Shown here in pieces: positions 5,704 to 20,251 of a stretch of DNA of 64,000 nucleotides. Origin of the DNA: an uncultured bacterium (GTDB lineage Bacteria > Patescibacteriota > Minisyncoccia > UBA6257 > 2-01-FULL-56-20). The first letter of the stretch is position 1. Every line of letters begins with the position of its first letter. The DNA lies in contig CAWJQC010000004.1 in the NCBI GenBank assembly GCA_963844965.1, positions 152,489 through 216,488 of the forward strand, in the 5' to 3' direction. The notes beneath the pieces were generated by a model. The model did no database searches. It saw only the letters and a program-made list of their open reading frames with translations, and was not told the DNA's origin. The position numbers and the translations under genes were made by a program.

Positions 5704-6489
5704 TTAAAGCTGATATTTTCGCTTAAACCTTTTTATCGCCTCTCTAGCGCCAGGCAAAGCTGTGGTGTTGTACAACTTACTTAGGTTGTCAAGAAAACTC
5801 GGACCAAATGATTCCTCAAATAATTTAACAACGTCCTGGTTTTCAAGCGTCTCCCCGTTCAATAAAGCCTGCACCAATGCCTCCCAACACACGCGCTCGC
5901 TCTGCTGATTCTTAGTTGCCAACCTCTTTACCATGGCATTGACTAAAGAAACTTCTAGGTTATAGGAAAATCCTTGATCGCTTGCGACTGCCGTTTTGTA
6001 TGCACTTACCCGATCCTCGGGCCATCTTGATCGCTCTGCGTAAGCCACGGTGATTTCCCTGGAGAGCTTTTCCACTACGCCCTCGTTAAGCGCATCGAAC
6101 AAGCAGCCGAAATTACTGTTGCGGTATATGCTGCTGACTCGGCCCGACCTTCGGAAGTTGATGCCTTCTTCGCCCAACTTTCGAAACAGGCCGGATTGTT
6201 TATAGTCTACGTATTCTTCGGTTCTTCGATCTGGGTGTTCGTAGGTATTCCACATACAGATATTTCGACTTACTGCATGCGTTTCCTCGTGTGCCAGCAC
6301 AGCAAGCTGTATTAACTCTGCCCCTCCGCATTTTTCAAGTTTCGCTTTTGCTGACTTCCGCCTTTTCGGATCCAAGTCAGAATAATCATCAACACGGCTA
6401 AGCACAATGACGTTGTTTTCCGGATTGTAGCTATGACCTGGACCCGCTATTTTAGACACAAAGGTCGAAACCAAGTACCATTGTGTCAT
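5704..6489 (-). CDS. HExxH-motif protein, putative zinc metallopeptidase-like
   Basis: ORF with LAHEETHAV. I take the start to be MTQWY at 6489, because the upstream ORF extension is antisense to recombinase sequence and matches the spurious antisense ORF at 18688-18978. Confidence 0.4.
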   Translation of the reverse strand: MTQWYLVSTFVSKIAGPGHSYNPENNVIVLSRVDDYSDLDPKRRKSAKAKLEKCGGAELIQLAVLAHEETHAVSRNICMWNTYEHPDRRTEEYVDYKQSGLFRKLGEEGINFRRSGRVSSIYRNSNFGCLFDALNEGVVEKLSREITVAYAERSRWPEDRVSAYKTAVASDQGFSYNLEVSLVNAMVKRLATKNQQSERVCWEALVQALLNGETLENQDVVKLFEESFGPSFLDNLSKLYNTTALPGAREAIKRFKRKYQL

Positions 6490-7836
6490 GACTAACAAAA
6501 AGGGGCATCGTATCCCCATGCTCCGCCGCATTGAGCGGGGCGAGGCGCAGGGTATCATCTGTTGGAAACTAGATCGAGTGGCACGCAATATGCAGGACGG
6601 CGGAAAGACCATTGAACTCCTTAAACAAGGAGTGATCCAACATATTCGTGCCTTCGCAAGCAGTTACTATCCGCAAGACAACGTGCTCCTCATGTGCATA
6701 GAGTTCGGCATAGCTGACCAATATGTTCGCGATTTAAGTGCTAACACTTCGCGCGGATTGAGATACAAAGCAAGCTTGGGTATCTACCCCGGCCTCGCCC
6801 CGTTCGGATATATAAACGATCCACAGACCAAGACCGTTATCGTAAACCGCAAGAACGCAAAGCTCGTCAAAAAAACTTTTGAGATTTACGCGACGGGCAA
6901 AGTCCGCCTTGAAAATCTTGCCGATCTTTGGGAGAAGGCGGGCGTCATGTCTAAAGGCAACCGTCGCGTCCATATTTCAAGAATGTCTTTCATTCTGCAA
7001 AATCCTTTCTACTACGGACACTTTCGTTATTGCGGCGAGATACACGAAGGCAAGCATGAGCCAATCATTACGAAAGACCTCTACGATAAAGCGAACGCTG
7101 TCCTGCGAAGCCGAGGCCGTGTGCCGGACATTAAGAACGACCCAAGCCCTTACTGCGGCCTCCTGCGGTGCGGCGAGTGCGGTATGGGTATTACGGCCGA
7201 GGACAAGACAAAGCACCAAAAGAACGGCAACGTCCACCACTACGTTTATTACCGTTGTACCCGCAAATCGAAGACGCACAAGTGCCACGAAGCACCCGTG
7301 CGGAGCGAGATACTGGATCGGCAGTTGTCGGCTCTTATCGCCGACTACGCCATGCCCAAAGAGTGGGTAGCCCCTTTGTCGGCTATGCTCGACCAAGAGG
7401 CCATAAACGCCAAACAGACGGCGTCGGTGGCCGTTCAAGAGTTGCGGGAGCAGGTGCAAGACCTTACCCGCGACCTCGCCAGACTTACCGATGTCTATGT
7501 TGCACAAGACATAGAGCGAGATGACTACCTTGAGAGGCGTCGTTCGCTCATGTCGGAAAAGAAGTCCGTCGAGGAGCAAATAGCCCGTCTTGAACGAACC
7601 CCCTCCGCGTGGATTGAACCTGCCCGAAGTTGGATTCGGGACGCTTCAATACTGGACGAAACAGCAAAAAACTTCGACCTCCCCTCCAAAAAACTCTCCC
7701 TCCAAAAAATCTTCGGATTGAACCTCTTTCTTAAAAACCGTCGTATCGAATTTAACCCCATCAAACCTTACGCTTCGCTCCGCGAAGCGCGCGTAAATTT
7801 TTCTGAAACTGACTTACCTTTGAAACTGGAGCGGGT
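6488..7836 (+). pseudogene. Large serine recombinase, 5'-truncated. It lacks the catalytic N-terminal ~65 aa including the YxRxST serine.
   Basis: It aligns with the intact paralog at 18647-20251 from MLRRIERGEAQGIICWKLDRVARN (=MLALIEKGEAQGILCWKLDRLARN) onward. It retains the recombinase domain, the zinc ribbon (CGxCG…YYRC) and the coiled coil. An upstream in-frame stop lies at 6434-6436. Confidence 0.75.
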
Positions 7837-7905
7837 AACGGGAATCGAACCCGTGTGTCAACCTTGGCTCCGTCACCATAAGAAGGACTGCTTGCTTTTT
7901 CCGTG
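7837..7905 (-). other. tRNA 3'-half-like remnant (T-arm, acceptor 3' strand and CCA). Probable att-site remnant or pseudo-tRNA.
   Basis: The minus-strand sense reads …ACGGGTTCGATTCCCGTTACCCGCTCCA. No complementary 5' acceptor strand (GCGGGTA) was found. It is similar to the 3' half of tRNA-Gly at 20163-20236. Confidence 0.45.
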
Positions 7906-7909
7906 AGTG

Positions 7910-8248
7910 TATTTACAACACCGCTTGGACTTATTTTAACAAAAAACTCTGACTTTGGCGAGGCCGGAAGGGGTCGTTGAGGGGGTCGTTCCAGAACGAC
8001 TACCTTTTGAATTGAAAATACTCGGCGAGCACTGGCTTCTCTGCCTCTCGCGGAGTTTTTTCTTACCCCCGACAATACCTCCTTTGAGGAGGTTGAAGGT
8101 TGCCCCTTCGCCCCTCGCCTGCTGGCTCGGGGCTCGGGGCTTATATTGTTGTGGGCTGGATGCGCTAATTTTCCTCGGCTCCGCTCTCCTTGGCCGAGTT
8201 GAAAAACACGAACCGCAGTTGATGCGCGCGGGTGGGAGAGAAACTTTG
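7910..8248. repeat. Left copy of an ~340-bp imperfect inverted repeat (partner at 13150-13505)
   Basis: Hand alignment with the reverse complement of 13150-13505 gives roughly 80-90% identity. Example: gtgtatttacaacaccgcttggacttattttaac…ggtcgttgagggggtcgttccagaacgactacc…cctcggctccgctctccttggccgagttgaaaaa. Confidence 0.8.
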
Positions 8249-8312: not shown

Positions 8313-9185
8313 ATGCCGAAACATACCAGCAAAAAATTTGTCAGAAGCCCAGACAATGGCGGCCGATTGCGCATCCAGCCCAGCGACGTCGCGCTCCTCC
8401 GCGATTTGTCGGAATATCGTTTCCTGAACACCGAGCAGGTTTTGGCCCTGCACCACCGAGGTTTGCGCAACCTCCAACGCCGCTTGCACGATTTGTACCA
8501 CGCGGGGTATCTTGAACGCCCTCCCCAGCAGAACATCTCCGCTCTGCCGAAAGGTCATATCGTTTACGGCTTGGGGGCGAAGGGTGCGGAGCTTCTTTAT
8601 GAAAATCGGGAGGAGCGCGCCGAAAAACTCCGGCAAGTGAAGCTGAACCGCGAGACAACGTTTCCCTACATCGCCCACGCTTTGATGATTTCCCAGTTCC
8701 GCGCGGCCTTGACACTGGCGGCGGAAAAAACCGGAGGGAAGATGAAAGTTGCGAGATGGCGACAGGGCTTTGAATTGAAAAACTATTTGAAGCTCCGCGG
8801 CGGAACTCCCGAACTCATGCCGGACGCGTTTTTCGCGATTGAACAGGGCGACAGACGCTGGAACTTGTTTTTGGAAACCGACCGCTCCACGATGACACTT
8901 GACCGGTTTTTGGTAAAGCTCAAAACATACTGGAAATGGTGGTGGGAGGAAAAATACAAAGAACAGCTCGGCATCTCGCACTTCCGCGTGCTTACCATAA
9001 CCATTTCCGAAGAACGGAAGGAGAACCTTCTCCGCGTCGCCAAAAACGCCGACCCGAGAAGGCAAGGGAGCAACATGTTTTTGTTTATTTCCGAAAAAGA
9101 GTTTTCGCTGAAGAAGCCGGAGGCGGTGTTGTCTCCGGTGTGGCTTTCGCCGAGAGACGGATTGAAACATTCGTTTCTTGAATAA
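8313..9185 (+). CDS. Replication-relaxation (Replic_Relax) family protein
   Basis: N-terminal VALLRDLSEYRFLNTEQVLALHH pattern and ~290 aa, typical of PF13814 proteins from plasmids and integrative elements. Confidence 0.55.
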   Translation: MPKHTSKKFVRSPDNGGRLRIQPSDVALLRDLSEYRFLNTEQVLALHHRGLRNLQRRLHDLYHAGYLERPPQQNISALPKGHIVYGLGAKGAELLYENREERAEKLRQVKLNRETTFPYIAHALMISQFRAALTLAAEKTGGKMKVARWRQGFELKNYLKLRGGTPELMPDAFFAIEQGDRRWNLFLETDRSTMTLDRFLVKLKTYWKWWWEEKYKEQLGISHFRVLTITISEERKENLLRVAKNADPRRQGSNMFLFISEKEFSLKKPEAVLSPVWLSPRDGLKHSFLE

Positions 9186-9245
9186 ATTAGCGGCGGCCAC
9201 GAGGTCGAAGCGGCCGCCAGTTTTTTAAAAAGTTCCCTATACTTT

Positions 9246-10004
9246 ATGCCGCATACGCCGACGACAACGACAATAATCGTGGGCGCGCTCATGGTCATCG
9301 CCACCGCGCTTTTTTGCGTCGCGGCTTATTTTGTCATCAAATACGCGCTCCGCTTCGTCGGAAAAATGTTCAGCTTCGTAAACGAGGTGGCAAACATCGT
9401 CAGGGAAAGGAAAGACCGGTATCTTGTTGGGCCGGTTTGGGGATGGGACATACAAGACCGGATAGAAGAATGGGACAAGCCGGACGAGGAGTGGTCGGTT
9501 ATGGTCGAAGGAGCGGCGGGATACGGCGAAGAATTTTTGGAGCGCGTCGCTCGCCGCGCGCTTGACGAAAACATTCCCCGGCTTGTGGTGAGAAAGCGGA
9601 TTGTCTGGCCGTATCTGCGCCGAAAATGGCAACCGGTTCTTGTGATAACCAACAAGAAAATAAAGGGCTATCAAATGCTGATTGACGCGACAGACTACAC
9701 CGACCGCCTTGATGTTTGGTGGCGAGTTGATAAAGGCGACCGCGACCAACTGCCCTTGAGAGGGGCGGAAATACGGGAAAAGAGATTCGGGCTCGATTCG
9801 TCGGGCGTTCTTGAAGCCCAAGCCCAACAAGAGAAAAACTGGGTATTTCCCGAACAGATGACCGCTCTCGACAAGCAGGAGTGGGACAACTGCACTGGTT
9901 TGGTGCGCGATATTGTCAGAGCCGAGGTAAAACGGATGGCGGACGAAGTTCGTATCGGCGGCGGCGTGGCTGGCGGCGCGAAGGGATTTATTGACATCAA
10001 CTAA
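9246..10004 (+). CDS. Membrane-anchored hypothetical protein
   Basis: 252-aa ORF with a single N-terminal TM (IIVGALMVIATALFCVAAYFVI). Confidence 0.45.
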   Translation: MPHTPTTTTIIVGALMVIATALFCVAAYFVIKYALRFVGKMFSFVNEVANIVRERKDRYLVGPVWGWDIQDRIEEWDKPDEEWSVMVEGAAGYGEEFLERVARRALDENIPRLVVRKRIVWPYLRRKWQPVLVITNKKIKGYQMLIDATDYTDRLDVWWRVDKGDRDQLPLRGAEIREKRFGLDSSGVLEAQAQQEKNWVFPEQMTALDKQEWDNCTGLVRDIVRAEVKRMADEVRIGGGVAGGAKGFIDIN

Positions 10005-11583
10005 CTATGAAAAACGGATTTTTAAAAACAATTTTGGACTGGATACTGGACTGGCGTTATCCGCTCCCGCCCCCGCCGGAGCCGGACTTGCCTCTTTTTC
10101 CGAGCAGTCGGAGGAACCGATGGCGGACAAATTCAAACTGCCGAGGCCCAACGAGCTTGTTCTCGGCAGTACGACAACCAAAGGGCCGGACGGCAAGGCA
10201 GAAGGCAAGACAAAGGGCGTGTCGCAGGACGACCGCTCGACCCATTTTTACGTGGTGGGAGCGACCGGCACGGGCAAGACGAAATTTTTGGAAACCCTAA
10301 TCTTGCAGGACGCGATGAACGCGCACGGCTTTGGCATCGTGGACGCGCAGGGCGATTTGACGGAAGACATCAAGAGCTATCTTTTCATTCTTACCTTCCC
10401 AAACGAACCGGAGGAAACCGCCGAATTTGAAAAAGATTCGGAAAAAGCCCTCAAAAAAATTAAAAGATTTTTGAGCGAACGCGTCGTGCTGATAGACCCG
10501 TCCGACAGGGAAAGAACTGTTTGCTTTAATCCGCTTGAAAAAGTGGAGGGGCTTTCGCCCGCCGGAATCGCGAGCGAAGCAGTGGAGGCGTTCAAGAAAA
10601 TCTGGCATGACGCTTGGGGCGCGAGAATGGAAGACCTGCTCAAAAATTCTCTGATAGCCCTCGTCGAGAACGACCTCACCCTCGCCGAACTTCCCCTGTT
10701 TCTTTCCGACATCGGGGCGAGAAAAAAGATTCTGAAAAAAGTCATCCATCCCGTCTGCCGCCAGTATTTTGAAAAGTTCAATTCTTTGAGGTCGTCGTTG
10801 CAGGACGAGTGGGCGGAATCAACTCTGAACAAGGCCCGCGCCTTCATGTCCAACGACCACGTGCGGCAGATGCTCTCGGCGGTTAAAAGCACTTTCAACT
10901 TCCGCGACATAATGGACGACCGGAAAATTCTGCTGGTGAAGCTGAATCGCGGAAAATTGAAGGGCGACGCCGACCTGCTCGGCTCTTTGCTTCTCTCCAA
11001 AATCCAGATGGCCGCCTTTTCTCGGACGGACGTTCCGCAATCCGAACGCGTGCCGTTTTATCTTTACATCGATGAGTTTCAGAATTTTGCGACCGAGAGT
11101 TTTATCCAAACGCTCGCCGAAGCGAGAAAGTATGGCCTGTCGATTACGCTGGCTCATCAGAATCTCGCCCAGCTACCGCCGTCCCTGCGGGCGTCGATAC
11201 TCTCCAACTGCGGCTTGCAGGCGTACTTCCGCATCTCGCGCGACGACGCGAACATGCTAGCTAGGGAATCTCTCGCTTCCGTTTACGAAGAGCCGCCCGG
11301 CTGGGAGTTTTACGTCCGCTCGCTTCAAGAACTGCCGAGGCGCGAGTGCGTGATAAAACATAAAATCGCGGGAGGCGTGATTGCCGTCCACACCATCGGA
11401 CTGCCTACCCCTTGGGAATGGGCGAAGATGGACGAAAAGAAATTCTCGGAGGGACTGGCCGCGATGAATACCGGCGGCGCGTACATGCGCAAGCGCGAGG
11501 ACATAGAGAAAGAATATCGGTCGAGGCAAGAGGCCCTCCGATTTATGGACGAGCCGGAGAGTTTCTGGGAGCGGAAGGTTTAA
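9991..11583 (+). CDS. TraG/VirD4/TraD-like (TrwB-type) conjugative coupling ATPase
   Basis: P-loop VVGATGTGKT. Walker-B-like LYIDEFQNF. C-terminal ~500 aa typical of type IV coupling proteins. Confidence 0.6.
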   Translation: MTSTNYEKRIFKNNFGLDTGLALSAPAPAGAGLASFSEQSEEPMADKFKLPRPNELVLGSTTTKGPDGKAEGKTKGVSQDDRSTHFYVVGATGTGKTKFLETLILQDAMNAHGFGIVDAQGDLTEDIKSYLFILTFPNEPEETAEFEKDSEKALKKIKRFLSERVVLIDPSDRERTVCFNPLEKVEGLSPAGIASEAVEAFKKIWHDAWGARMEDLLKNSLIALVENDLTLAELPLFLSDIGARKKILKKVIHPVCRQYFEKFNSLRSSLQDEWAESTLNKARAFMSNDHVRQMLSAVKSTFNFRDIMDDRKILLVKLNRGKLKGDADLLGSLLLSKIQMAAFSRTDVPQSERVPFYLYIDEFQNFATESFIQTLAEARKYGLSITLAHQNLAQLPPSLRASILSNCGLQAYFRISRDDANMLARESLASVYEEPPGWEFYVRSLQELPRRECVIKHKIAGGVIAVHTIGLPTPWEWAKMDEKKFSEGLAAMNTGGAYMRKREDIEKEYRSRQEALRFMDEPESFWERKV

Positions 11584-11892: not shown

Positions 11893-13109
11893 GCCCAAAG
11901 ACCGCCGCCATCATATGTACGTTATCGGGCAGACCGGCACCGGCAAGTCCACGCTCTTGAAGAATATGGTGATACAGGACTTGCGGTTCGGCCACGGGGT
12001 GCGCGGTCATTGATCCCCACGGCGAACTGGTGGAAGACATTTTGAACTTCGTGCCGCGCTCGCCGCACGAACGAGGTCGTGTATTTCAATCCGGCGGACA
12101 CGGAAAACCCCATCGGCTTGAATATCCTTGAAGCCCGCGACGAGAACGAAAAACAGCTCGTCGCTTCGTCGCTCATCTCGGTATTCAAGCATTTGTGGAA
12201 AGGGTTTTGGGGTCCGCGGCTTGAGCACGTTTTCCATAACGCCATACTTGCTTTGATGGACACGCCGGGCAGTACCTTGCTCGGCATTTACCGGATGCTC
12301 GCGGACGACGAATACCGGCAGCAAGTCGTCGGCGCAGGTCAAAGACCCCGTCGTGAGATTGTTTTGGAAGGAGGATTTTGAGAAGTATCCGCCGCAACTT
12401 CAAAAAAGAAGTCGCCTCGCCGATTCAGAACAAAATCGGCCAGCTTCTCACGAGCACGCCCTTGCGAAACATCGTCGGCCAGTCCCGGAGCACGATTGAT
12501 CTGCGCTTCATTATGGACAACCAGAGAATTTTCCTTGTGAACCTCGCCAAAGGCACGGATCGGCGAGGACAAGGCAAATCTGCTCGGCTCGGTGCTCGTT
12601 ACGAAGCTGTACCTTGCCGCGCTTGAACGGCAGGACATGCCGGAGGAGGAACGCAAGGATTTTTATCTGTACATTGACGAGTTTCAGAACTTCTCCACGG
12701 ACGTTTTCCCGTCTATCTTGTCGGAAGCCAGAAAATATCGGCTTGAACCTCATTCTCGCCCATCAATATCTTATATCAGCTTTCGGAGAGCGTGAAGCAC
12801 TCGGTTTTCGGCAACGTCGGCACGCTCGCGTCTTTTCGCGTCGGAAGCATCGACGCGCGCGAACTGGCCGAGGAGTTCAGCCCGACTTTCACCAAAGAAG
12901 ACCTGGAACACACCGAAAACTATCACGCCTACCTCAAGCTGATGATAGACGGGAAGCGATCCACTCCTTTTTCCGCCGAAACGCTCCCGCCTCTCGCCCA
13001 TCAGGGCGACGAGGCGCAGAAAGAAACGCTCATTAGAGTTTCACGGGAGCGTTTCGCGTCAAAGCGAGAGGACATGACGGAGAAAATCGAAAAATGGTTT
13101 TCAAAGTAA
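11893..13109 (+). pseudogene. Degraded paralog of the coupling ATPase, with multiple frameshifts and stops
   Basis: P-loop HHMYVIGQTGTGKSTLLKNM, YLYIDEFQNFSTDVF and C-terminal homology are spread over at least 4 frames (ORFs 12079.., 12378.., 12592.., 12792..). Confidence 0.7.
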
Positions 13110-13149: not shown

Positions 13150-13505
13150 GCGGATTTTCTTTTTTTGTTTTCCTTCCCACCCGCGCGTAGAATACGATTC
13201 GGTTTTTTCAACTCGGCCAAGGAGAGCGGAGCCGAGGAAATACGCTAGAGACAGCCCAGCATACAATAGTAAGTCCCGAGCCCCGAGCAGCAGCGAGGGG
13301 CGAAGGGGCAAACCTTCACCCTCCCAAAAGGAGGTATTGTCGGGGGTGTCGAAAGGTCCGAGGCGGAGCGAAGAAGCCAATATCAGCGGAGTAATTTCAA
13401 TTCACGGGGTAGTCGTTCTGGAACGACCCCCTCAACGACTCCTTCGGGCCTCGCCAAAGTCAGAGATTTTGGTTAAAATAAGTCCAAGCGGTGTTGTAAA
13501 TACAC
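13150..13505. repeat. Right copy of the ~340-bp imperfect inverted repeat (partner at 7910-8248)
   Basis: See 7910-8248. Confidence 0.8.
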
Positions 13506-13665
13506 TCCATAACACAACTTAAAGGTTTTTTATTCACCGAACAATGGGCTTCCACAATGGAAGCCCATTGTTTTTCCGCAAAACCGCGCGCTTCGCGCGC
13601 GTGGAGTGTCAGGTTCAATCCGAAAATTTTTTGAGCGAACGATTTTTTGAGGGGTAAGGGGGTCG
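13506..13665 (-). repeat. Perfect inverted duplicate (~160 bp) of the 3' end of the recombinase gene at 20007-20167
   Basis: The reverse complement of 13506-13665 equals 20007-20167 base-for-base in the segments compared. These include the 13+3+13 palindrome caatgggcttcca-nnn-tggaagcccattg and the gcgcgc-ttcg-cgcgcg hairpin. It is a remnant 3' end of a recombinase gene pointing toward the inverted repeat. Confidence 0.85.
13537..13573 (+). terminator. Rho-independent terminator-like hairpin (caatgggcttccacaatggaagcccattg + TTTTTCC)
   Basis: Perfect 13-bp stem followed by a T5 run on the plus strand. The same element on the minus strand at 20099-20135 can terminate tRNA-Gly transcription. Confidence 0.5.
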
Positions 13666-13756: not shown

Positions 13757-16462
13757 TTACCTTTTCAGACCATATTTCTGTTCTCGTTTCTGGAAAGCTT
13801 CTGTGCCGCCCTCAAGAACGTCATAGATTGTCTTCCGCATCTCTATATTCTCTAACGAACCTTGTAGGGCATTAACCTTACTTTTATCATCAACGGATAA
13901 AGCAGTTATCAATTCTGAATCGCCCAAGACAACGATATTGGCGTTATGGGTGCAAATAATTATCTGCCTGTTCACTTTTTGCTCTCTAACCAAAGTTACT
14001 ACCTTCTCTGCTACGAATTTTGCGTCAAGGTGATCCTCCGGCTGGTCAATGATAAGTGGATGGTCGCCAGACAACAATATAAGTTCCACCAAAGTGCCGC
14101 ATCGCTCGCCGAACGACATACTATCTTTGCCGAGTATTTTAGTTCCATATTTAATGTGATTTTCTCCGGTTTCCGCATATTCATCTAGCCGCATTATTAG
14201 GTCTTCTCTAATAATTTGAGTATTCGGGTCTTCAAAAAACCACCGCAGAGTTTCTGTCTTTCCGCTACTATCTTGTAATTTTGGTATTCTATTTTCTTTA
14301 ATAGTGGAAATTATCTTTTCCCTTGCGACATCACCAGTAGCTTTGCCGACAAGTTCGTTTATTACATCTTTAACGTAATCCTCTCTGACGGGAGATTTTA
14401 TCTTAAAATTCTTTTCAATGACACCCTTTAACTCGTCGTTTGATTGGAGGAACTGCTCCTTTATCCACGGAGCAATATCACCACTTGGATCGTCCCATAC
14501 GGCAGTGATTGTTGTATCCTTAAAAGATTCGTTGAACCCGCCAATAAGTTTTTGGTTTTCCTTTATCCAGAGTTTTAGTTTTGCCGCCAGTTGATTCACG
14601 AGTTGGCTGTGTTGTTTCTTATCGCCTTCAAACTTTTTTAGGCGATTTTCAAGTTGCGATGATTGCTGGTCAATAAACTTAATTCTGTTGTTTCGCTTTT
14701 CTACCTCACTCTTTGTTATAGTAACGCCGTTTAGCTTACAGTAATCGGTAAACTGCTTTGTAAGTTCTGCGCTTTCTCTATCCAGTTCTTTTTTTACATC
14801 GGATTCTCTTACTTCCTTTACTGCTCCTTCTAAATTCTTAACTACGGAATCCAGTTGAGATTCTTTTAGGTTATAAAAATCTTCAATTTTTTTCTTTAGC
14901 GCATTTTTCTCCGCAAAAAGTTCTAAAACTTTATCTTTATCAACAGTAGTAGAAAGTTTAAGTTGCCCTGCGAATTTTTTAATGAGGACGGCTTGGGCTT
15001 CAATATCTTGGATCAAGCCATCAATCAACTGGCGTTTGGCTCTATTGCTTTTAATTTTTTCGGCAAGGTCTTTATATTCTTTTGTTTTTAACTTCTTAAA
15101 GTAAGATTCAATTTGTTCTCGTTCCGCTTCAAGTTTCTTTTTGTCTATTTCTACTTGGAGTTTATCGGCGTAACTGTTACGGGTAGTTTCCATTTCTACA
15201 GCCAACGCCTCTATTTCCTCTTTTGTCTTAATGAGTAGATCGGAATGAAGACGGCCTCCTATGTAATCCGCTATCTGTTTTGGGCTATCGGCTTTTTTCT
15301 CAATTTCTCCTTGTGTCCAGTATTCAACTTGAAAGGACGAAGTATAAAATGGGTCATTCCACTCTTTGACTTGACGCTTTAGAGATACTGGGTCTTCTGC
15401 TCCACTTTGAAAGATAACCTCAACTTCAAGATTGGGGAACTCCCTACTCAAAAATTCAATTAAGGAAAGTTTTTTGTCGCCTTTATCGGATGAAAACTTG
15501 TTAGCTACATATCCAATCAATTCTGCTAAAGCGGTCTTTCCGGCGGCTCGTGGCCCGATAACCGTGGTTAAATTCGGACTAAAAAACAGTTCTTGATTTA
15601 GAGTAATTGGTGGAAATATACTTCTCTTTGATTGATAACTTTGATGATTTAGCAATTTTGCGGATACAATCTGCGGATGAAGATAAAGTGGCGGACTATC
15701 ATCAAGACAAACTCTAATAACTGGCTCATAAATAATTTGTTTCAAACCTTCAAATGTTGGATCGGCCTTAATCCAACTATACTTCTTACCAATTACTTCC
15801 GTTGAGTGGCCGCTTTTGTATTGAAGTTTTGATCTATCGCAAGCGTCGGAAGTAATAATACACGGAAACTCCTGTTTAATCTTTGGGAACACTATTTTTC
15901 TGTAATCCTCAACCTGTTTTATGGCCGATACTTCAAAAATATCAACCAAAAACGCTAAATCTTTTTTTAGTGTCGCACGGACATCACTATCCAATTGTTC
16001 TATCCCGTTGGACTTGTTACCCGCGTGGAGTAAAACAAGCCCGTCTAACTCGTGTATTTTTTGACACGCGTCTTCAAAGTTACAGTAAATCTCCTTATCC
16101 CCCTTACCCTTAATATCGTTTTCCGAAAAATTAAGAGGGCAGAGTAATTTATCGTAAATAGTTTTTGAAGTAGTGGAAGAATCAAAAACTCCGATAATAT
16201 GTATCCCTTTATTGCCCTTATCGGTGCGCAGTTCAACGCCGGGGAGAATTGTTATATCTTTTCCTTTAGCAGCTTTTAGAACCTCGTCAATTCCTTTAAC
16301 GGTATGGTGGTCTGTAATAGCAATAACAGATATATTTTCTGTTATTGCCTTTTTCACTATGTCTTCCGCTTTGTCTTTACAGCCACTATCCCAATCATAA
16401 GAAGACGGGGTATGAACGTGCAAATCCCACTTTCTCCAAATTGAACCGCGGGGTGAATTCAT
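13757..16462 (-). CDS. PHP-family phosphoesterase fused to an SMC/Rad50/SbcC-like ABC ATPase with a long coiled-coil insertion. Putative nuclease-ATPase.
   Basis: 901 aa. N-terminal PHP motifs WDLHVHTPSSYD, ITDHH, LLHAGN, ITSDACD. Walker A GPRAAGKT at ~aa 300. ~350-aa Lys/Glu-rich coiled coil. Walker B LIIDQPEDHLD and H-loop ICTHNANI at the C-terminus. 6 bp from the methyltransferase gene. Confidence 0.7.
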   Translation of the reverse strand: MNSPRGSIWRKWDLHVHTPSSYDWDSGCKDKAEDIVKKAITENISVIAITDHHTVKGIDEVLKAAKGKDITILPGVELRTDKGNKGIHIIGVFDSSTTSKTIYDKLLCPLNFSENDIKGKGDKEIYCNFEDACQKIHELDGLVLLHAGNKSNGIEQLDSDVRATLKKDLAFLVDIFEVSAIKQVEDYRKIVFPKIKQEFPCIITSDACDRSKLQYKSGHSTEVIGKKYSWIKADPTFEGLKQIIYEPVIRVCLDDSPPLYLHPQIVSAKLLNHQSYQSKRSIFPPITLNQELFFSPNLTTVIGPRAAGKTALAELIGYVANKFSSDKGDKKLSLIEFLSREFPNLEVEVIFQSGAEDPVSLKRQVKEWNDPFYTSSFQVEYWTQGEIEKKADSPKQIADYIGGRLHSDLLIKTKEEIEALAVEMETTRNSYADKLQVEIDKKKLEAEREQIESYFKKLKTKEYKDLAEKIKSNRAKRQLIDGLIQDIEAQAVLIKKFAGQLKLSTTVDKDKVLELFAEKNALKKKIEDFYNLKESQLDSVVKNLEGAVKEVRESDVKKELDRESAELTKQFTDYCKLNGVTITKSEVEKRNNRIKFIDQQSSQLENRLKKFEGDKKQHSQLVNQLAAKLKLWIKENQKLIGGFNESFKDTTITAVWDDPSGDIAPWIKEQFLQSNDELKGVIEKNFKIKSPVREDYVKDVINELVGKATGDVAREKIISTIKENRIPKLQDSSGKTETLRWFFEDPNTQIIREDLIMRLDEYAETGENHIKYGTKILGKDSMSFGERCGTLVELILLSGDHPLIIDQPEDHLDAKFVAEKVVTLVREQKVNRQIIICTHNANIVVLGDSELITALSVDDKSKVNALQGSLENIEMRKTIYDVLEGGTEAFQKREQKYGLKR

Positions 16463-16468
16463 AAATTA

Positions 16469-17584
16469 TTACCTTTGTTTCAAAAACTCGTACTCAATCT
16501 TTGAAAATAAATTACTGGGTAAGTTAGACAATCTTTTTTTAGCAACCTTGATGGCCTGTTCTGATTTATCAATACCAATCCAATGTCGGCCAAGCTCTTG
16601 GGCGGCAACGAGGGTTGTCCCAGAGCCGCAAAAACAATCAAGAACTAAATCGTCTTTATTTGACGAAGCTTCAATAATAAACTTTAACAAGTCCAAACTT
16701 TTTTCTGTTGGATAATTGGGATACTGCGGGTCTTTAAATTCCCAAATATCCTGCATTTTCTTCCCTGTTCTCTCATCGAGGAAAATTTTTTTGCGTGGTA
16801 CTCCGCTTGCCGACCATTCAATAAGTCCTTGCTTATCCCATTCTTCTAAAATAGCCGGATTAGTTCGCCAATGGCGTCCTTTTGGTGGTTTTTGCCCTCG
16901 CCACTCCTTACTTGTATTCCCGTTTGATGTTTCTCCGGGTGCGTGGAGTGGGATTGTTGTATATCGCCGTCCGTCTTTATCAACTTTCTTAAACAAGCGA
17001 TCCTCGTCTTCCTCGGAGAATGAAACGTGTGGATCATTCCAAATCGGGTTTTCTGATTTGGAGTAAAAAAGTATCAAATCCTTGATATTGCCGTAGGCCT
17101 TACGATGAAAATTTTTCGGGTTACACTTAATGCGAGTAATATCGTTACGAAAACTTTTGCGACCAAAAACTTCATCCATTATAAGTTTCACATAGTGGCC
17201 GATTTTATAATCAATGTGAAGGTAAATTGACCCACGCTCGGATAGAAGTTCGCGCAAAAAAATCAGGCGTTCGCGTAGAAATTCTAAAAATTCCGCACCA
17301 ATTAACGTATCGCTATATGCAATCTCATCGCTATTGCTACTACTGATTGTATTGGCACGCCCCTCGCTTATTTTGAAATGGCCATTGGTTGCAAATGGTG
17401 GATCAATATAAATCAAATCAACCTTACCCCCATAATTATCAAGTAACGTTTTGAGAGTGGAAAGATTATCGCCATGAACAAGTTTATTTTTTGCCCCTTT
17501 GCCGGAAAGCACTTTCAAGTTAGCTCTTGGAGTGCTTTCAAGAATTTCACGCTCACCCTTTTTGCTTTCATAACTAAGAAGCAT
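16469..17584 (-). CDS. Site-specific DNA methyltransferase (N6-adenine/N4-cytosine, β-class permuted: DPPF then FCGSGTT)
   Basis: Motif IV IYIDPPF precedes motif I DCFCGSGTTLVAA. ParB-nuclease-free Mod/PvuII-like architecture. Confidence 0.8.
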   Translation of the reverse strand: MLLSYESKKGEREILESTPRANLKVLSGKGAKNKLVHGDNLSTLKTLLDNYGGKVDLIYIDPPFATNGHFKISEGRANTISSSNSDEIAYSDTLIGAEFLEFLRERLIFLRELLSERGSIYLHIDYKIGHYVKLIMDEVFGRKSFRNDITRIKCNPKNFHRKAYGNIKDLILFYSKSENPIWNDPHVSFSEEDEDRLFKKVDKDGRRYTTIPLHAPGETSNGNTSKEWRGQKPPKGRHWRTNPAILEEWDKQGLIEWSASGVPRKKIFLDERTGKKMQDIWEFKDPQYPNYPTEKSLDLLKFIIEASSNKDDLVLDCFCGSGTTLVAAQELGRHWIGIDKSEQAIKVAKKRLSNLPSNLFSKIEYEFLKQR

Positions 17585-17590
17585 ATAAAA

Positions 17591-18373
17591 TTATATTTGA
17601 TATAAGAATTCGCGCAGGACGAGTGCGCTCATAATATTCTCGTCCTTTAACTCGCCAGCGACCGCTTTATACATTTTGTTGTTGCCCTTGATATAAAGTA
17701 CCCCATCTAAAATGGCCACCTTAACCGCTTTAACACCCTTCGCTTTGATAGTGGCGATTGCGTCGTTAAATTGAGCATTTTGATGACCCCCAAAATCGGT
17801 TAAAAATTTTGCCTCTCCAATAACATACTTCCCGTTAAAACGCCCTATCAAATCAAGTCCTTTGTTATGATTGTAGTTCAAGTATTTTTTAGCAAAGGCC
17901 ATCGTTTCCGCATCTCCCGCATCAAGAACTGCGTTTCCTTTTGCCACTAAAAATTCCGACATCTTCAGCGGTTGCACTCCGAGAGTTTTTCTATTCAGCC
18001 AGCGGCGGAAAAGTGGGCCAATTTGTCGGTTTGTTTCTTTTGGCTCTGATGAACGAGAGAAAATTTGCTTAAGACCCATCTCATACAATCGGCCACATAG
18101 ACGAGCAACCGTCGCCGGATTGCGCTTTAATGCTTCTTTGTCGCGCTTAAGATAAGCAATGTAGGAATCTTTAATAGGAAATAAATCAAGCTTCAAAAGA
18201 TTTTCAAGAAGCGCAACATTGTTCCTTTTTTCAAACGCCTGTTCTACGTTTTTCCAAAGCGCCTTGTTAATGTCGCGAATTCCCTCTGGAATTGTTGGAT
18301 ATACTTGAAACAAATCATCGAGGTAGCTTCGCTGATTTGCGTAATCAATACTTAATTTTGTCCAATGGTTCAT
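17591..18373 (-). CDS. Putative Type II restriction endonuclease with a PD-(D/E)xK core (LDLIG…GEAKF)
   Basis: 260-aa ORF between the C-protein and methyltransferase genes, with 4-6 bp intergenic gaps. D…ExK motif GLDLIGRFNGKYVIGEAKFLTD. Confidence 0.6.
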   Translation of the reverse strand: MNHWTKLSIDYANQRSYLDDLFQVYPTIPEGIRDINKALWKNVEQAFEKRNNVALLENLLKLDLFPIKDSYIAYLKRDKEALKRNPATVARLCGRLYEMGLKQIFSRSSEPKETNRQIGPLFRRWLNRKTLGVQPLKMSEFLVAKGNAVLDAGDAETMAFAKKYLNYNHNKGLDLIGRFNGKYVIGEAKFLTDFGGHQNAQFNDAIATIKAKGVKAVKVAILDGVLYIKGNNKMYKAVAGELKDENIMSALVLREFLYQI

Positions 18374-18377
18374 GGTT

Positions 18378-18590
18378 TTATTTTATTAAGTCATCAACTG
18401 CGACATTTAGGGCTTTGGCTATTTTCGCCAAAGTTTCTATTGTCGGATTCTTATTAACACCCGATTCAATTTTAATCATGGTGTTATAGGTAACATCCGC
18501 CAATTTGGACAAACGATCTTGTGAAATGCCGAGTTTACTACGGTATTTTTTGATATTCTCGGCAATCCTTGATTTGTTGCTTGCTCCCAT
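18378..18590 (-). CDS. Controller (C) protein, XRE-family HTH regulator of the R-M operon
   Basis: 70 aa with an HTH (KLGISQDRLSKLADVTYNTMIKIESG). First gene of the C-R-M operon. Confidence 0.75.
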   Translation of the reverse strand: MGASNKSRIAENIKKYRSKLGISQDRLSKLADVTYNTMIKIESGVNKNPTIETLAKIAKALNVAVDDLIK

Positions 18591-18650
18591 AGTAATATAG
18601 TAGTATGATTGAACTAATAGCGAGTGATTTTGTTTAATCTATTACTATGG
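18587..18650. promoter_or_regulatory. Symmetric divergent control region. A 10-bp perfect inverted repeat (ccatagtaat … attactatgg) contains both start codons (C gene and recombinase); it is a candidate C-box/operator.
   Basis: 18587-18596 ccatagtaat and 18641-18650 attactatgg, separated by a 44-bp AT-rich spacer. Confidence 0.45.
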
Positions 18651-20251
18651 TATCAAAAAATACACCGCACGTAAATACCTATTTTCTCTACGCCCGCAAA
18701 TCCACCGACGTTGAAGACAAGCAAGTCCGGTCTATTGAGGACCAGCTTGCCGTATTGCGGGCGTTGGCCAAAGGCGAAGGACTAACTATCGCCAGAGAGT
18801 TTATTGAGCGGCAATCGGCCAAGAAGCCGGGCCGCCCCGCTTTTAACGAAATGCTCGCCTTGATTGAAAAAGGCGAAGCGCAAGGAATCCTCTGTTGGAA
18901 ACTTGACCGCTTGGCTCGCAATCCGGTTGATAGCGGCCGCATATCTTGGCTCTTACAGCAGGGCGTTATCCGGCACATCCAAACGCACGACCGAAGCTTT
19001 TATCCTACGGACAATGTTTTGATGACGAGCGTAGAGTTCGGGATGGCGAACCAGTTTATCCTTGATTTGAAAGTGAACACCAAACGCGGCCTTGACGCCA
19101 AAGCCAAGCGCGGCGACTATCCGGGCCATGCTCCCATCGGCTACATCAACGACACCCGCGTAAAGCTCGTGGCCGTTGATAAAAGGAAATCCAAAATTAT
19201 CAGGCGCGCGTTTGAACTCTACGCCGAGGGCAACTGGCGTTTGGAAGACGCCGCCAAATTCCTTTTGGAGAACGGTATTAAAACGAAAGGCGACAAACCC
19301 TTGTCGCGCGACCGAATCTCTTATCTCTTGACCAATCCTTTTTATTACGGCAATTTCCGCTACAACGGGGAACTTTACGAAGGCAATCACGAGCCGATAA
19401 TTACGAAGCAACTTTTTGACAAAGTTCAGGCGGCGTTGAAAGCGCGAAGCAAGCCGCCCTCAAGTCCCGCCAATCACCCGCAAGCTCTTTGCGGGGCTAT
19501 CCGGTGCGGCACTTGCGGCATGATGATAACCGCCGAGCGTAAGATAAAACACCAGAAAAACGGCAATGTCCACGAATACACTTATTATCGTTGTACCCGC
19601 AAGAACAAAGCGATCCGGTGCTCCGAGCCGCCTATCCGCGAGGACGCGCTTAATCGGCAGTTATCGAACCTTATCAAAAAGTATGCTTTGCCGGACGATT
19701 GGGCGGCGGAGCTATTAAAAATGTCCGAGCGGGACGAACAGGAAGCCGCCCAATCAACGACCGCCCTCGTCCGAGAGGCGCGGGACGAGATACAGGCCAT
19801 TTCTCAAAAACTCCAACGCCTTCTTGACGCATATCTTGACCAAGATATTGAGCGGGAAAGCTACCGCTTCGAGAAGGCAAACCTTCTCTCCCGCAAGAAG
19901 TCGTTGGAGGAGAAAATCGGCAATTTGGAGCAAGGGGCGATTGCTTGGGTTGAACCCCTGCGCGATTGGATAAAAGACGCTCAAACGCTGAACGAAATGA
20001 CGGAAACGACCCCCTTACCCCTCAAAAAATCGTTCGCTCAAAAAATTTTCGGATTGAACCTGACACTCCACGCGCGCGAAGCGCGCGGTTTTGCGGAAAA
20101 ACAATGGGCTTCCATTGTGGAAGCCCATTGTTCGGTGAATAAAAAACCTTTAAGTTGTGTTATGGAGCGGGCGAAGGGAATCGAACCCTCGTCTATAGCT
20201 TGGGAAGCTATCGTACTGCCACTGTACTACGCCCGCAAGATAGCCCACTAA
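18647..20251 (+). CDS. Large serine recombinase (resolvase catalytic domain, recombinase domain, zinc ribbon, coiled coil). Intact.
   Basis: 534 aa. N-terminal YARKSTDVEDKQVRSIEDQ…GLTIAREFIERQSAKK…PAFNEMLALIEKGEAQGILCWKLDRLARN. Zinc ribbon CGAIRCGTCGMM…YYRCTRK. Confidence 0.85.
   Translation: MVSKNTPHVNTYFLYARKSTDVEDKQVRSIEDQLAVLRALAKGEGLTIAREFIERQSAKKPGRPAFNEMLALIEKGEAQGILCWKLDRLARNPVDSGRISWLLQQGVIRHIQTHDRSFYPTDNVLMTSVEFGMANQFILDLKVNTKRGLDAKAKRGDYPGHAPIGYINDTRVKLVAVDKRKSKIIRRAFELYAEGNWRLEDAAKFLLENGIKTKGDKPLSRDRISYLLTNPFYYGNFRYNGELYEGNHEPIITKQLFDKVQAALKARSKPPSSPANHPQALCGAIRCGTCGMMITAERKIKHQKNGNVHEYTYYRCTRKNKAIRCSEPPIREDALNRQLSNLIKKYALPDDWAAELLKMSERDEQEAAQSTTALVREARDEIQAISQKLQRLLDAYLDQDIERESYRFEKANLLSRKKSLEEKIGNLEQGAIAWVEPLRDWIKDAQTLNEMTETTPLPLKKSFAQKIFGLNLTLHAREARGFAEKQWASIVEAHCSVNKKPLSCVMERAKGIEPSSIAWEAIVLPLYYARKIAH
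20163..20236 (-). tRNA. tRNA-Gly (anticodon CCC)
   Basis: Reverse complement GCGGGCGTAGTACAGTGGCAGTACGATAGCTTCCCAAGCTATAGACGAGGGTTCGATTCCCTTCGCCCGCTCCA. 7-bp acceptor stem, D-arm GTAC/GTAC, anticodon loop TTCCCAA, T-loop TTCGATT, encoded CCA. It lies antisense inside the recombinase 3' coding end. Confidence 0.85.

Follow-up and report, generated by a model that had tools for sequence, protein, structure and literature searches.

A TrlF-family PHP-ATPase gene encoded with a Tsp45I-type restriction-modification system on an integrative mobilizable element of an uncultured Patescibacteriota bacterium

The stretch of DNA considered here (the window) comprises 64,000 nucleotides of contig CAWJQC010000004.1, assembled from an uncultured bacterium of the Patescibacteriota (GCA_963844965.1). 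Between positions 13757 and 18590 it carries four genes on the minus strand, encoding a controller (C) protein, a Type II restriction endonuclease (R), a DNA methyltransferase (M) and a protein of 901 amino acids (aa) in which a PHP phosphoesterase domain is joined to an ATPase of the ATP-binding cassette (ABC)/SMC type. The last of these belongs to the TrlF family, and its placement behind a restriction-modification (R-M) system is the subject of this report. The four genes and the interval that precedes them are the following:

18378..18590, minus strand: C protein, XRE/HTH_3, 70 aa, first gene of the operon (Pfam HTH_3, 8.8e-13; PADLOC Control_protein, 1.8e-8)
17591..18373, minus strand: Type II restriction endonuclease, Tsp45I family, 260 aa (PF06300, 1.3e-120, residues 1-260 of 260; PADLOC REase_II, 5.6e-126)
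16469..17584, minus strand: N6/N4 DNA methyltransferase, cognate Type II methylase, 371 aa (PF01555 N6_N4_Mtase, 4.5e-48; PADLOC MTase_II, 7.7e-174)
13757..16462, minus strand: TrlF-family (Ppl-like) fusion of PHP and ABC/SMC-type ATPase, 901 aa (NF045780, 469 bits; PADLOC Ppl, 1.2e-33; AlphaFold; Foldseek)
18591..18646, no strand: divergent intergenic region between the C gene and a recombinase gene, 56 bp (read from the sequence)

The original prediction, made from the bare sequence, had described four minus-strand genes packed with gaps of 4-6 bp, and the open reading frames (ORFs) lie exactly where it put them, with 4, 6 and 6 nt between C, R, M and TrlF. Its XRE-family C-protein is borne out by the HTH_3 and Control_protein matches, and this small helix-turn-helix (HTH) gene stands upstream of R at a distance of 4 nt, as a controller gene does. 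The endonuclease, first labelled PD-(D/E)xK, is assigned by Pfam to the Tsp45I family, and its recognition site would be GTSAC if it has the specificity of Tsp45I; its gene is adjacent to that of the methyltransferase and co-oriented with it at a gap of 6 nt, which identifies the pair as a Type II R-M system. All four genes have a GC content of 0.37-0.41, whereas it is 0.52 in the recombinase, in the genes nearby and across the entire window, and this uniformly low value points to their joint arrival from a donor of lower GC content. The same C-R-M-TrlF order is present in an independent assembly from another sample (locus L111), with 99.85% DNA identity over 3985 nt. An AAAGG Shine-Dalgarno-like sequence precedes the ATG of TrlF, and a simple promoter/terminator scan, the counts of which were no better than those for shuffled sequences, gave no terminator-like site between M and TrlF. 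The 56-bp interval upstream of C must contain the operon promoter and any C-box; it holds one weak sigma-70-like match on the minus strand. The start codons of the C gene and the recombinase gene diverge across these 56 bp, and the C-protein could influence expression of the recombinase too. Relatives of the Tsp45I-family R-M system on Campylobacter and Miltoncostaea plasmids are two-gene units without TrlF; since such pairs occur in this plain form, TrlF is an add-on in the window cassette. From this layout, the four genes are predicted to be one horizontally acquired, C-protein-controlled operon that combines a Tsp45I-type Type II R-M system with TrlF.

The 901-aa protein scores 469.2 bits on the NCBIfam model NF045780 ("TrlF family AAA-like ATPase"), for which the curated, equivalog-level cut-off is 350 bits, with residues 5-898 aligned to model positions 1-944. 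The next-best NCBIfam models are Ppl and then the Spaf_1101 family. The best PADLOC match is Ppl as well (PDLC02208, 1.2e-33, 114 bits), and Pfam detects a PHP domain (1.6e-11, residues 13-90), with SMC_N, AAA_23 and AAA_21 below threshold. Proteins named TrlF by the Prokaryotic Genome Annotation Pipeline (PGAP) on E. coli IncF and Staphylococcus plasmids match the PADLOC Ppl model from end to end (456 and 438 bits, respectively), so that TrlF and Ppl form one continuum. The combination of PHP and ATPase is already catalogued and one of its branches is experimentally validated, Ppl being a single-gene anti-phage system with an ATPase and a PHP domain that has been known since 2020 (PMC11482910, PMC12904381). 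The earlier suggestion of an undescribed module without a named system therefore does not hold, as the protein passes the NF045780 cut-off and shares the Ppl architecture. A sequence search of the PDB returned isolated PHP enzymes only (RNase AM and TrpH-like), with no full-length relative and no Ppl structure.

Named relatives of the 901-aa protein come mostly from metagenome-assembled genomes of Patescibacteria, the candidate phyla radiation. In addition, 1092 plasmid records are matched by tblastn, including those of conjugative plasmids from E. coli and Klebsiella; of the 25 plasmid matches listed, all annotated ones are named TrlF family, or SMC in two GenBank records. Only four phage records match, and these partially and at the C-terminus, on which ground a phage-borne origin of the gene was rejected. 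A frameshift-merged pair of genes was rejected as well, since thousands of homologues of equal length align end to end and NF045780 covers residues 5-898 in one unbroken stretch. The fusion is genuine.

The domains of the fusion protein, all read on the minus strand, are arranged as follows:

15713..16438, minus strand: PHP domain, about aa 9-250, with ligands H15, H17, D51, H52, E77, H88, H146, D206 and H219 (Pfam, alignment and model)
15263..15673, minus strand: ATPase N-lobe, about aa 264-400, with Walker A G303-T310 and Q-loop Q384 (alignment of 39 homologues)
14183..15262, minus strand: coiled-coil/helical insertion between the ATPase lobes, about aa 401-760 (model: long helices 408-646, then a helical region)
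13760..14182, minus strand: ATPase C-lobe, about aa 761-901, with signature S783-x-G785, Walker B D806, Q807-P-E809, D-loop L812-D813 and H-loop H839 (alignment)

Every motif quoted in the original prediction is present, both in the PHP part (HVH 15-17, DHH 51-53, HAGN 146-149, SDACD 205-209) and in the ATPase (Walker A GPRAAGKT 303-310, IIDQPEDHLD 804-813, CTHNANI 837-843), and its architecture of an N-terminal PHP domain followed by an ABC/SMC ATPase split by a coiled coil agrees with hidden Markov model (HMM) matches, AlphaFold and Foldseek alike. The AlphaFold2 model, built with 39 homologues, predicts a beta/alpha PHP domain, an SMC/Rad50-like head and a coiled coil (mean pLDDT, a predicted score for the local distance difference test, 88.5; predicted template modelling score, pTM, 0.75). 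In Foldseek searches of the PDB, the ATPase part matches the heads of SMC, MukB, JetC, Rad50 and RecF with their coiled coils, at E from 4.7e-9 (5xei, 4.7e-9; 7nyw_A, 1.9e-7; 9q9h_B, 4.6e-7), those of SMC, Rad50, MukB and JetC extending to 1e-6, and the PHP part matches RNase AM (7ug9, 4e-8) as well as PHP domains in Pol III alpha and in PolC; a solved relative over the full length was not found there. Residues G303, G308, K309, Q384, S783, D806, P808 and L812 are invariant in the alignment of 39 homologues, with G785 (37/39) and D813 (38/39) nearly so. As in SbcCD/Mre11-Rad50 and OLD/Gabija GajA, an ABC ATPase head is coupled to a nuclease, and Foldseek indicates that the Rad50/SMC-type head and antiparallel coiled coil are shared with SbcCD/Mre11-Rad50. 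However, the presumed nuclease of TrlF is fused in cis and is a PHP domain instead of a calcineurin-like or TOPRIM one, and the coiled coil is short and hookless, with no CxxC of a zinc hook anywhere in the 901 aa. Neither the protein nor a neighbouring gene gave a match to an Mre11/SbcD-type metallophosphatase, and the protein has no TOPRIM, GajA or OLD match in Pfam or PADLOC.

ABC ATPases normally carry a catalytic glutamate directly after the Walker B aspartate. In the window protein this residue is a glutamine (DQPE, residues 806-809, nt 14036-14047), as it is in 35 of the 39 aligned homologues and in Ppl-like proteins encoded on plasmids of E. coli and Staphylococcus; among the loci in which the glutamine was noted are L118, L119, L120 and L013-L024. 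If this is a natural 'EQ-like' state, nucleotide binding or sensing would be expected to prevail over fast hydrolysis, unless E809 stands in.

Homologues of the 901-aa protein recur beside R-M genes of Types I, II and III, an association that the original prediction had left to be checked. In a sample of 59 non-redundant TrlF loci for which 2 kb or more of upstream sequence is available, an R-M gene (methylase, HsdS or R-M helicase) lies in the same-strand operon in at least 21, which is a raw count without a matched control and a lower bound, a Pfam scan of unclassified neighbours having yielded more R-M parts (Eco57I, Type ISP, EcoRI methylase, BsuBI/PstI, BpuJI and Vsr). A further 11 of the 59 loci have an R-M gene elsewhere in the locus, and in 27 none was seen within the DNA available. 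The same scan returned PglZ/DUF499, RhuM and HEPN neighbours and, in 5 of 86 scanned, TrlG-like Schlafen/HATPase_c_4 proteins; GmrSD is also among the defence-type neighbours of TrlF genes.

All relatives that are at least 57% identical to the window protein and have a readable context adjoin R-M genes. At 89% identity (L028), the upstream neighbour of TrlF, 4 nt away, is a Type III Res-like gene, and at 85% (L001) TrlF and a complete Type I hsdRMS are divergently oriented, HigB and ThsB-TIR being close by. The order N6_N4 methylase, TrlF, ResIII helicase is found in L029 (75%), L002 (70%), L031 (63%), L112 (60%) and L114 (57%, a complete Woesebacteria genome), with gaps of a few nt or gene overlaps of 20 nt. 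A protein of only 42% identity (L116) stands in the same mod-trlF-res order, its flanks matching PADLOC Type III Mod (420 bits, full length) and Type III Res. Type I operons of the form hsdM-hsdS-trlF-hsdR occur in L017, L022, L037, L041 and L107, and TrlF follows a fused Type I-like R and an M-S pair in L024, Type III mod and res in L014 and L015, a C5 methylase and R.HinP1I in L013 and an MvaI/BcnI endonuclease in L019, with a Type II R-M pair accompanying it in L067. All ten R-M-embedded proteins that were tested score above the TrlF cut-off, the distant members at 475-557 bits. A separate 58.9-kb contig (L115, ENA NODE_146) carries a methylase, an unknown 463-aa gene, TrlF, an S24 repressor, a SAVED/SMODS (CBASS-like) pair and a BsaWI R-M pair, and part of a terminase lies at its edge; it has the appearance of a dense defence island on a likely prophage.

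The full canonical set of PHP ligands is present in the window protein and in relatives at least 70% identical to it, but is kept in only about half of 102 family members. The conservation of these ligands, which the original prediction had named as a check, thus stands for the window protein and its close relatives and fails for the family at large, where about half have lost several. The recurrent variants are of the HHDYEN type and of the QQDHEHPD type, in which HxH has become QxQ (L016, L017, L019, L022 and L026), and their ATPase motifs are all intact; a QHNYENYDH variant is found in L116 and P0021. Canonical sites number 6 of 21 in members embedded in Type I or III operons and 37 of 67 in those without a detected R-M gene, and degenerate sites 15/21 and 30/67, respectively (Fisher p=0.045, phylogeny-uncorrected). 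Decay of the PHP site therefore seems commoner in Type I/III-embedded members, although this is only a hint, and for the window protein itself PHP catalysis is plausible. In one related operon (L112/L113, JGI Ga0366835/Ga0366836) the Type III Mod encoded before TrlF, of 708 aa, bears an extra GIY-YIG nuclease domain; the PHP site of the TrlF in this operon is partly decayed (QHDHEHHDC).

These variants bear on the idea that TrlF is an integral accessory subunit of restriction enzymes, in which the ATPase and coiled coil would act as a DNA clamp or loader together with the restriction nuclease and the PHP domain would be dispensable. Such a role would fit the conserved mod-trlF-res triad and the loss of PHP ligands beside intact ATPase motifs in L116, L017, L022 and L019. 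It is unlikely, however, given that the partner in the window is from a family of small Type II enzymes that forms a two-gene unit elsewhere, that the window TrlF retains a complete PHP site and that the partners as a whole are too diverse for a single conserved interface.

The R-M partners of TrlF are mutually unrelated, being of Types I, II and III and including N6, N4 and C5 methylases, and where a homologue shares 75% identity with the window TrlF, the methylases next to the two share only 33%. That methylase and TrlF were inherited together was rejected on this disparity, which, along with the unrelatedness of the partners, argues against a specific protein partner for TrlF. The same observations would suit TrlF as an autonomous Ppl-like defence gene that nests in R-M operons for their promoters and is functionally unconnected to restriction. 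A single gene suffices for protection by Ppl (PMC11482910), independent systems embedded in Type I R-M, BREX, DISARM and Hma loci are well documented (bioRxiv 10.1101/2024.01.29.577857; PMC11411939), R-M systems of all types occur as neighbours and the 27 loci with no R-M gene seen in the available DNA point the same way. However, the mod-trlF-res order is kept across TrlF proteins 42-75% identical to the window protein, and the excess of PHP decay in Type I/III operons, taken with the stated limits of that comparison, suggests that a partner nuclease can take over and hence a functional coupling; together, conserved order and decay bias argue against chance co-location. We regard simple nesting as possible but not probable.

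The family takes its name from trlF of the temperature-restricting (TRL) locus trlR-trlF-trlG of Photorhabdus laumondii, where trlF is annotated as a histidinol phosphatase and growth arrest mapped to trlG (PMC7554251). The window protein shares its length and its PHP and ABC-ATPase architecture with this family, to which it is a full-length, above-cut-off match; its identity to the TrlF proteins of enterobacterial plasmids is about 24-26%. The TRL operon is headed by trlR and the window operon likewise by a small HTH regulator, and the pYR3 TRL locus of Yersinia ruckeri has Type I methylase genes inside it (PMC7554251). In contrast to the TRL operon, which includes trlG (Schlafen/AlbA_2 and HATPase_c_4), the window has no trlG-like ORF downstream of 13757 and places a complete Type II R-M pair between regulator and trlF. 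The passage on Ppl in a recent review describes it as a 3'-5' single-stranded DNA exonuclease that is inhibited by nucleoside triphosphates on both domains and activated by 3'-OH ends (PMC12904381). Ppl and the window protein share two-domain architecture and ABC-ATPase class, with partial HMM matches at both ends, but Ppl stands alone whereas the window TrlF is predicted to be co-transcribed with R-M genes, and the anti-phage activity that is validated for Ppl is putative for the TrlF clade.

A long coiled coil is also a feature of RloC. PrrC is an ABC-ATPase anticodon nuclease nested almost exclusively in Type I R-M loci, and RloC is likewise an ABC ATPase (bioRxiv 10.1101/2024.01.29.577857). 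The effector in PrrC and RloC is an anticodon nuclease, whereas that of TrlF is a PHP phosphoesterase, which is linked to Types II and III besides Type I. By analogy with these systems, R-M proteins could keep TrlF latent until a phage anti-restriction factor unleashes it, leading to cell death or arrest. The nested, prrC-like position of trlF between hsdS and hsdR in L017 and L022, the ABC ATPase of RloC (bioRxiv 10.1101/2024.01.29.577857) and the growth arrest that the TRL operon causes in Photorhabdus (PMC7554251) would agree with such a guard. Specific protein contact would be needed, however, and the partners are structurally unrelated Type I, II and III enzymes with unrelated methylases; moreover, PADLOC gives no PrrC or RloC match for the cassette proteins at E<=0.01, and the arrest in Photorhabdus is TrlG-dependent, mutations in trlF not having been found. 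A guard of the PrrC/RloC type is accordingly improbable.

Methylase, helicase and ATPase are co-encoded in the Hma and MADS systems (in MADS, mad2 methylase and mad3 ATPase), as they are on the E. coli IncF plasmids with TrlF. MADS mad3 matches TrlF proteins weakly (2e-6 to 3e-18) and in the ATPase part only. No match to the Hma models is listed for TrlF and Res proteins or for the helicase and TrlF of the E. coli plasmid, and the best 25 PADLOC matches listed for the methylases include no Hma, all being MTase, REase-MTase, mad2 or PglX. Membership in Hma was rejected, as there is no Hma match and the partners score as Type I/III R-M subunits. On one such plasmid (L118, E. coli IncFIA, NZ_CP097428.1, 24567-32115), a DEAD/DEAH helicase, an N6 methylase and TrlF follow one another beside the replication region, an arrangement present on many similar conjugative IncF plasmids of E. 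coli and Klebsiella; there TrlF matches PADLOC Ppl over its full length, the methylase also matches MADS mad2 and the ATPase matches mad3.

The cassette lies within a mobile element, the features of which are as follows:

18647..20251, plus strand: large serine recombinase, rec2, 534 aa (Resolvase, Recombinase and Zn_ribbon_recom domains)
20163..20236, minus strand: tRNA-Gly(CCC), integration target (ARAGORN)
13505..13665, no strand: inverted repeat, left arm, 161 nt (repeat search)
20007..20167, no strand: inverted repeat, right arm, 161 nt (repeat search)
8313..11583, plus strand: mobilization module (Pfam: Replic_Relax 8313-9185; unknown 252-aa ORF; TrwB/TraG-type coupling protein 9991-11583)

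A recombinase-bearing island at a tRNA had been proposed earlier, and both the recombinase and the tRNA-Gly are confirmed; the proposal of a defence-related, mobile context is likewise supported by the defence neighbours of TrlF and by the serine recombinase and Type IV coupling protein (T4CP). The mobilization module has a GC content of about 0.53, compared with 0.39 for the R-M/TrlF cassette. A TrlF locus on an Aminicenantales contig similarly combines a coupling protein, a serine recombinase and TrlF, and related serine recombinases are present in eight of the surveyed TrlF loci. The cassette belongs to an integrative mobilizable element of the serine-recombinase kind, located at tRNA-Gly. 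This setting bears on a housekeeping role, in which TrlF would be a repair analogue of SbcCD/Mre11-Rad50 that adjoins R-M genes by chance. The structural likeness of head and coiled coil to Rad50 and SMC would favour it, but the distribution is patchy and mobile (a low-GC cassette, a mobilizable element with a recombinase and more than 1000 plasmid records), the neighbours are defence genes and not repair genes, and the zinc hook is absent. A housekeeping role is therefore scarcely credible.

The element also shows signs of rearrangement. The arms of the 161-nt inverted repeat are 100% complementary and bracket 6.3 kb containing TrlF-M-R-C-rec2; the left arm, beginning 92 nt beyond the stop codon of TrlF, repeats in inverted orientation the rec2 3' end and the first 5 nt of the tRNA. 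The core of the repeat is a hairpin with a 14-bp stem, of which the 64 kb hold two copies against 0 expected. The bracketed segment could be invertible, or the repeat could be the scar of a rearrangement or stem from ambiguity in the assembly. The mobilization genes have inverted repeats of their own on either side (7905-8228 and 13182-13507, as well as 7682-7725 and 13611-13654; 78-90% complementary), and both sets could be traces of recombinase-mediated inversions or again result from ambiguous assembly. Read on the minus strand, 13665-13182 resembles a junction of recombinase 3' end and left end, an attP-like joint of a related element. The rec2 ORF enters the antisense strand of tRNA-Gly by 89 nt, so that its last 30 or so codons are host or attachment-site (att) sequence.

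A second large serine recombinase ORF (6488-7906) is 49% identical to rec2. Its resolvase domain is missing roughly the first 54 positions, among them the catalytic serine, and the ORF ends over a 41-nt tRNA-like fragment (7827-7867) that matches the 3' part of tRNA-Gly at 78% identity, in the same arrangement as rec2. These features suggest that two related integrative mobilizable elements have accreted in tandem at one tRNA. Three short ORFs in different frames (12079-12381, 12592-12795 and 12792-13109, within about 11900-13109) have translations similar to central and C-terminal stretches of the T4CP at 9991-11583 (YLYIDEFQNF...EARKY is one example) and give the impression of another coupling-protein gene, disrupted by frameshifts.

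From the order of the genes, the family and intact motifs of the protein, its predicted fold, the recurrent linkage to R-M genes and the mobile setting we draw the reading, held with moderate confidence, that TrlF in this C-R-M operon on a mobilizable element is a second-layer anti-phage or anti-plasmid effector and not a new kind of system. For this effector we infer, by homology, a defence activity and a nuclease polarity, as well as a dependence on DNA ends and a synergy with restriction. The two ATPase lobes would assemble into an SMC/Rad50-like head that dimerises around nucleotide, and head and coiled coil would engage DNA, most likely at free ends. The nucleotide state would then gate the metal centre of the N-terminal PHP domain, allowing exonucleolytic degradation of the DNA. 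With trlF placed behind R and M, its expression would be delayed and timed by the C-protein in common with the R-M genes. Cuts made by the endonuclease could supply the ends on which TrlF acts, so that restricted DNA would be destroyed instead of repaired. The link between TrlF and restriction is best read as coupling at the level of substrate or of regulation, in which TrlF would sense DNA ends or nucleotide state.

Several observations weigh against an effector of this kind. On the Ppl equivalog NF042955 the 901-aa protein reaches only 155.7 bits, in two partial stretches, where the cut-off is 1000, and therefore the Ppl mechanism transfers by distant homology only. A defence role of the TrlF clade is likewise a prediction from homology, and temperature restriction in Photorhabdus mapped to trlG, not trlF (PMC7554251). 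With glutamine in place of the canonical catalytic glutamate, the ATPase may bind nucleotide rather than turn it over. Loss of PHP ligands in about half of the family, including many Type I/III-embedded members, means that nuclease activity is not a universal function of the family. Finally, 27 of the 59 loci are without a visible R-M gene and Ppl is active alone, so synergy with restriction is not required.

A broader proposal, which we consider rather doubtful, is that TrlF is a general plug-in partner for any type of restriction system, an SMC/Rad50-like end sensor that would act after the first cut. An intact PHP domain would destroy the resulting fragments, while a decayed one would leave an ATPase or clamp that feeds the partner nuclease, the decayed forms being the QxQ or HHDYEN variants in Type I/III operons. 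TrlF with an intact PHP domain would in this case do the job that RecBCD does in E. coli, which would suit lineages without RecBCD/AddAB.

The 901-aa protein itself is not new, in that its family is named by NCBI and Ppl, its cousin, is already established as an anti-phage gene. What is added here is a testable pattern, in which TrlF genes sit in Type I, II and III R-M operons with unrelated partners and the nuclease site has stayed intact or has decayed depending on the context. If this is mere co-location, it would be one further case of defence genes nested within each other, whereas if the plug-in proposal is true it would reveal a widespread and unrecognised two-step of restriction and end-processing. 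If the link is functional, restriction would be backed by a dedicated DNA-end-processing ATPase, which would matter especially in uncultured bacteria with small genomes, and the large, functionally unassigned TrlF family would gain a concrete role.

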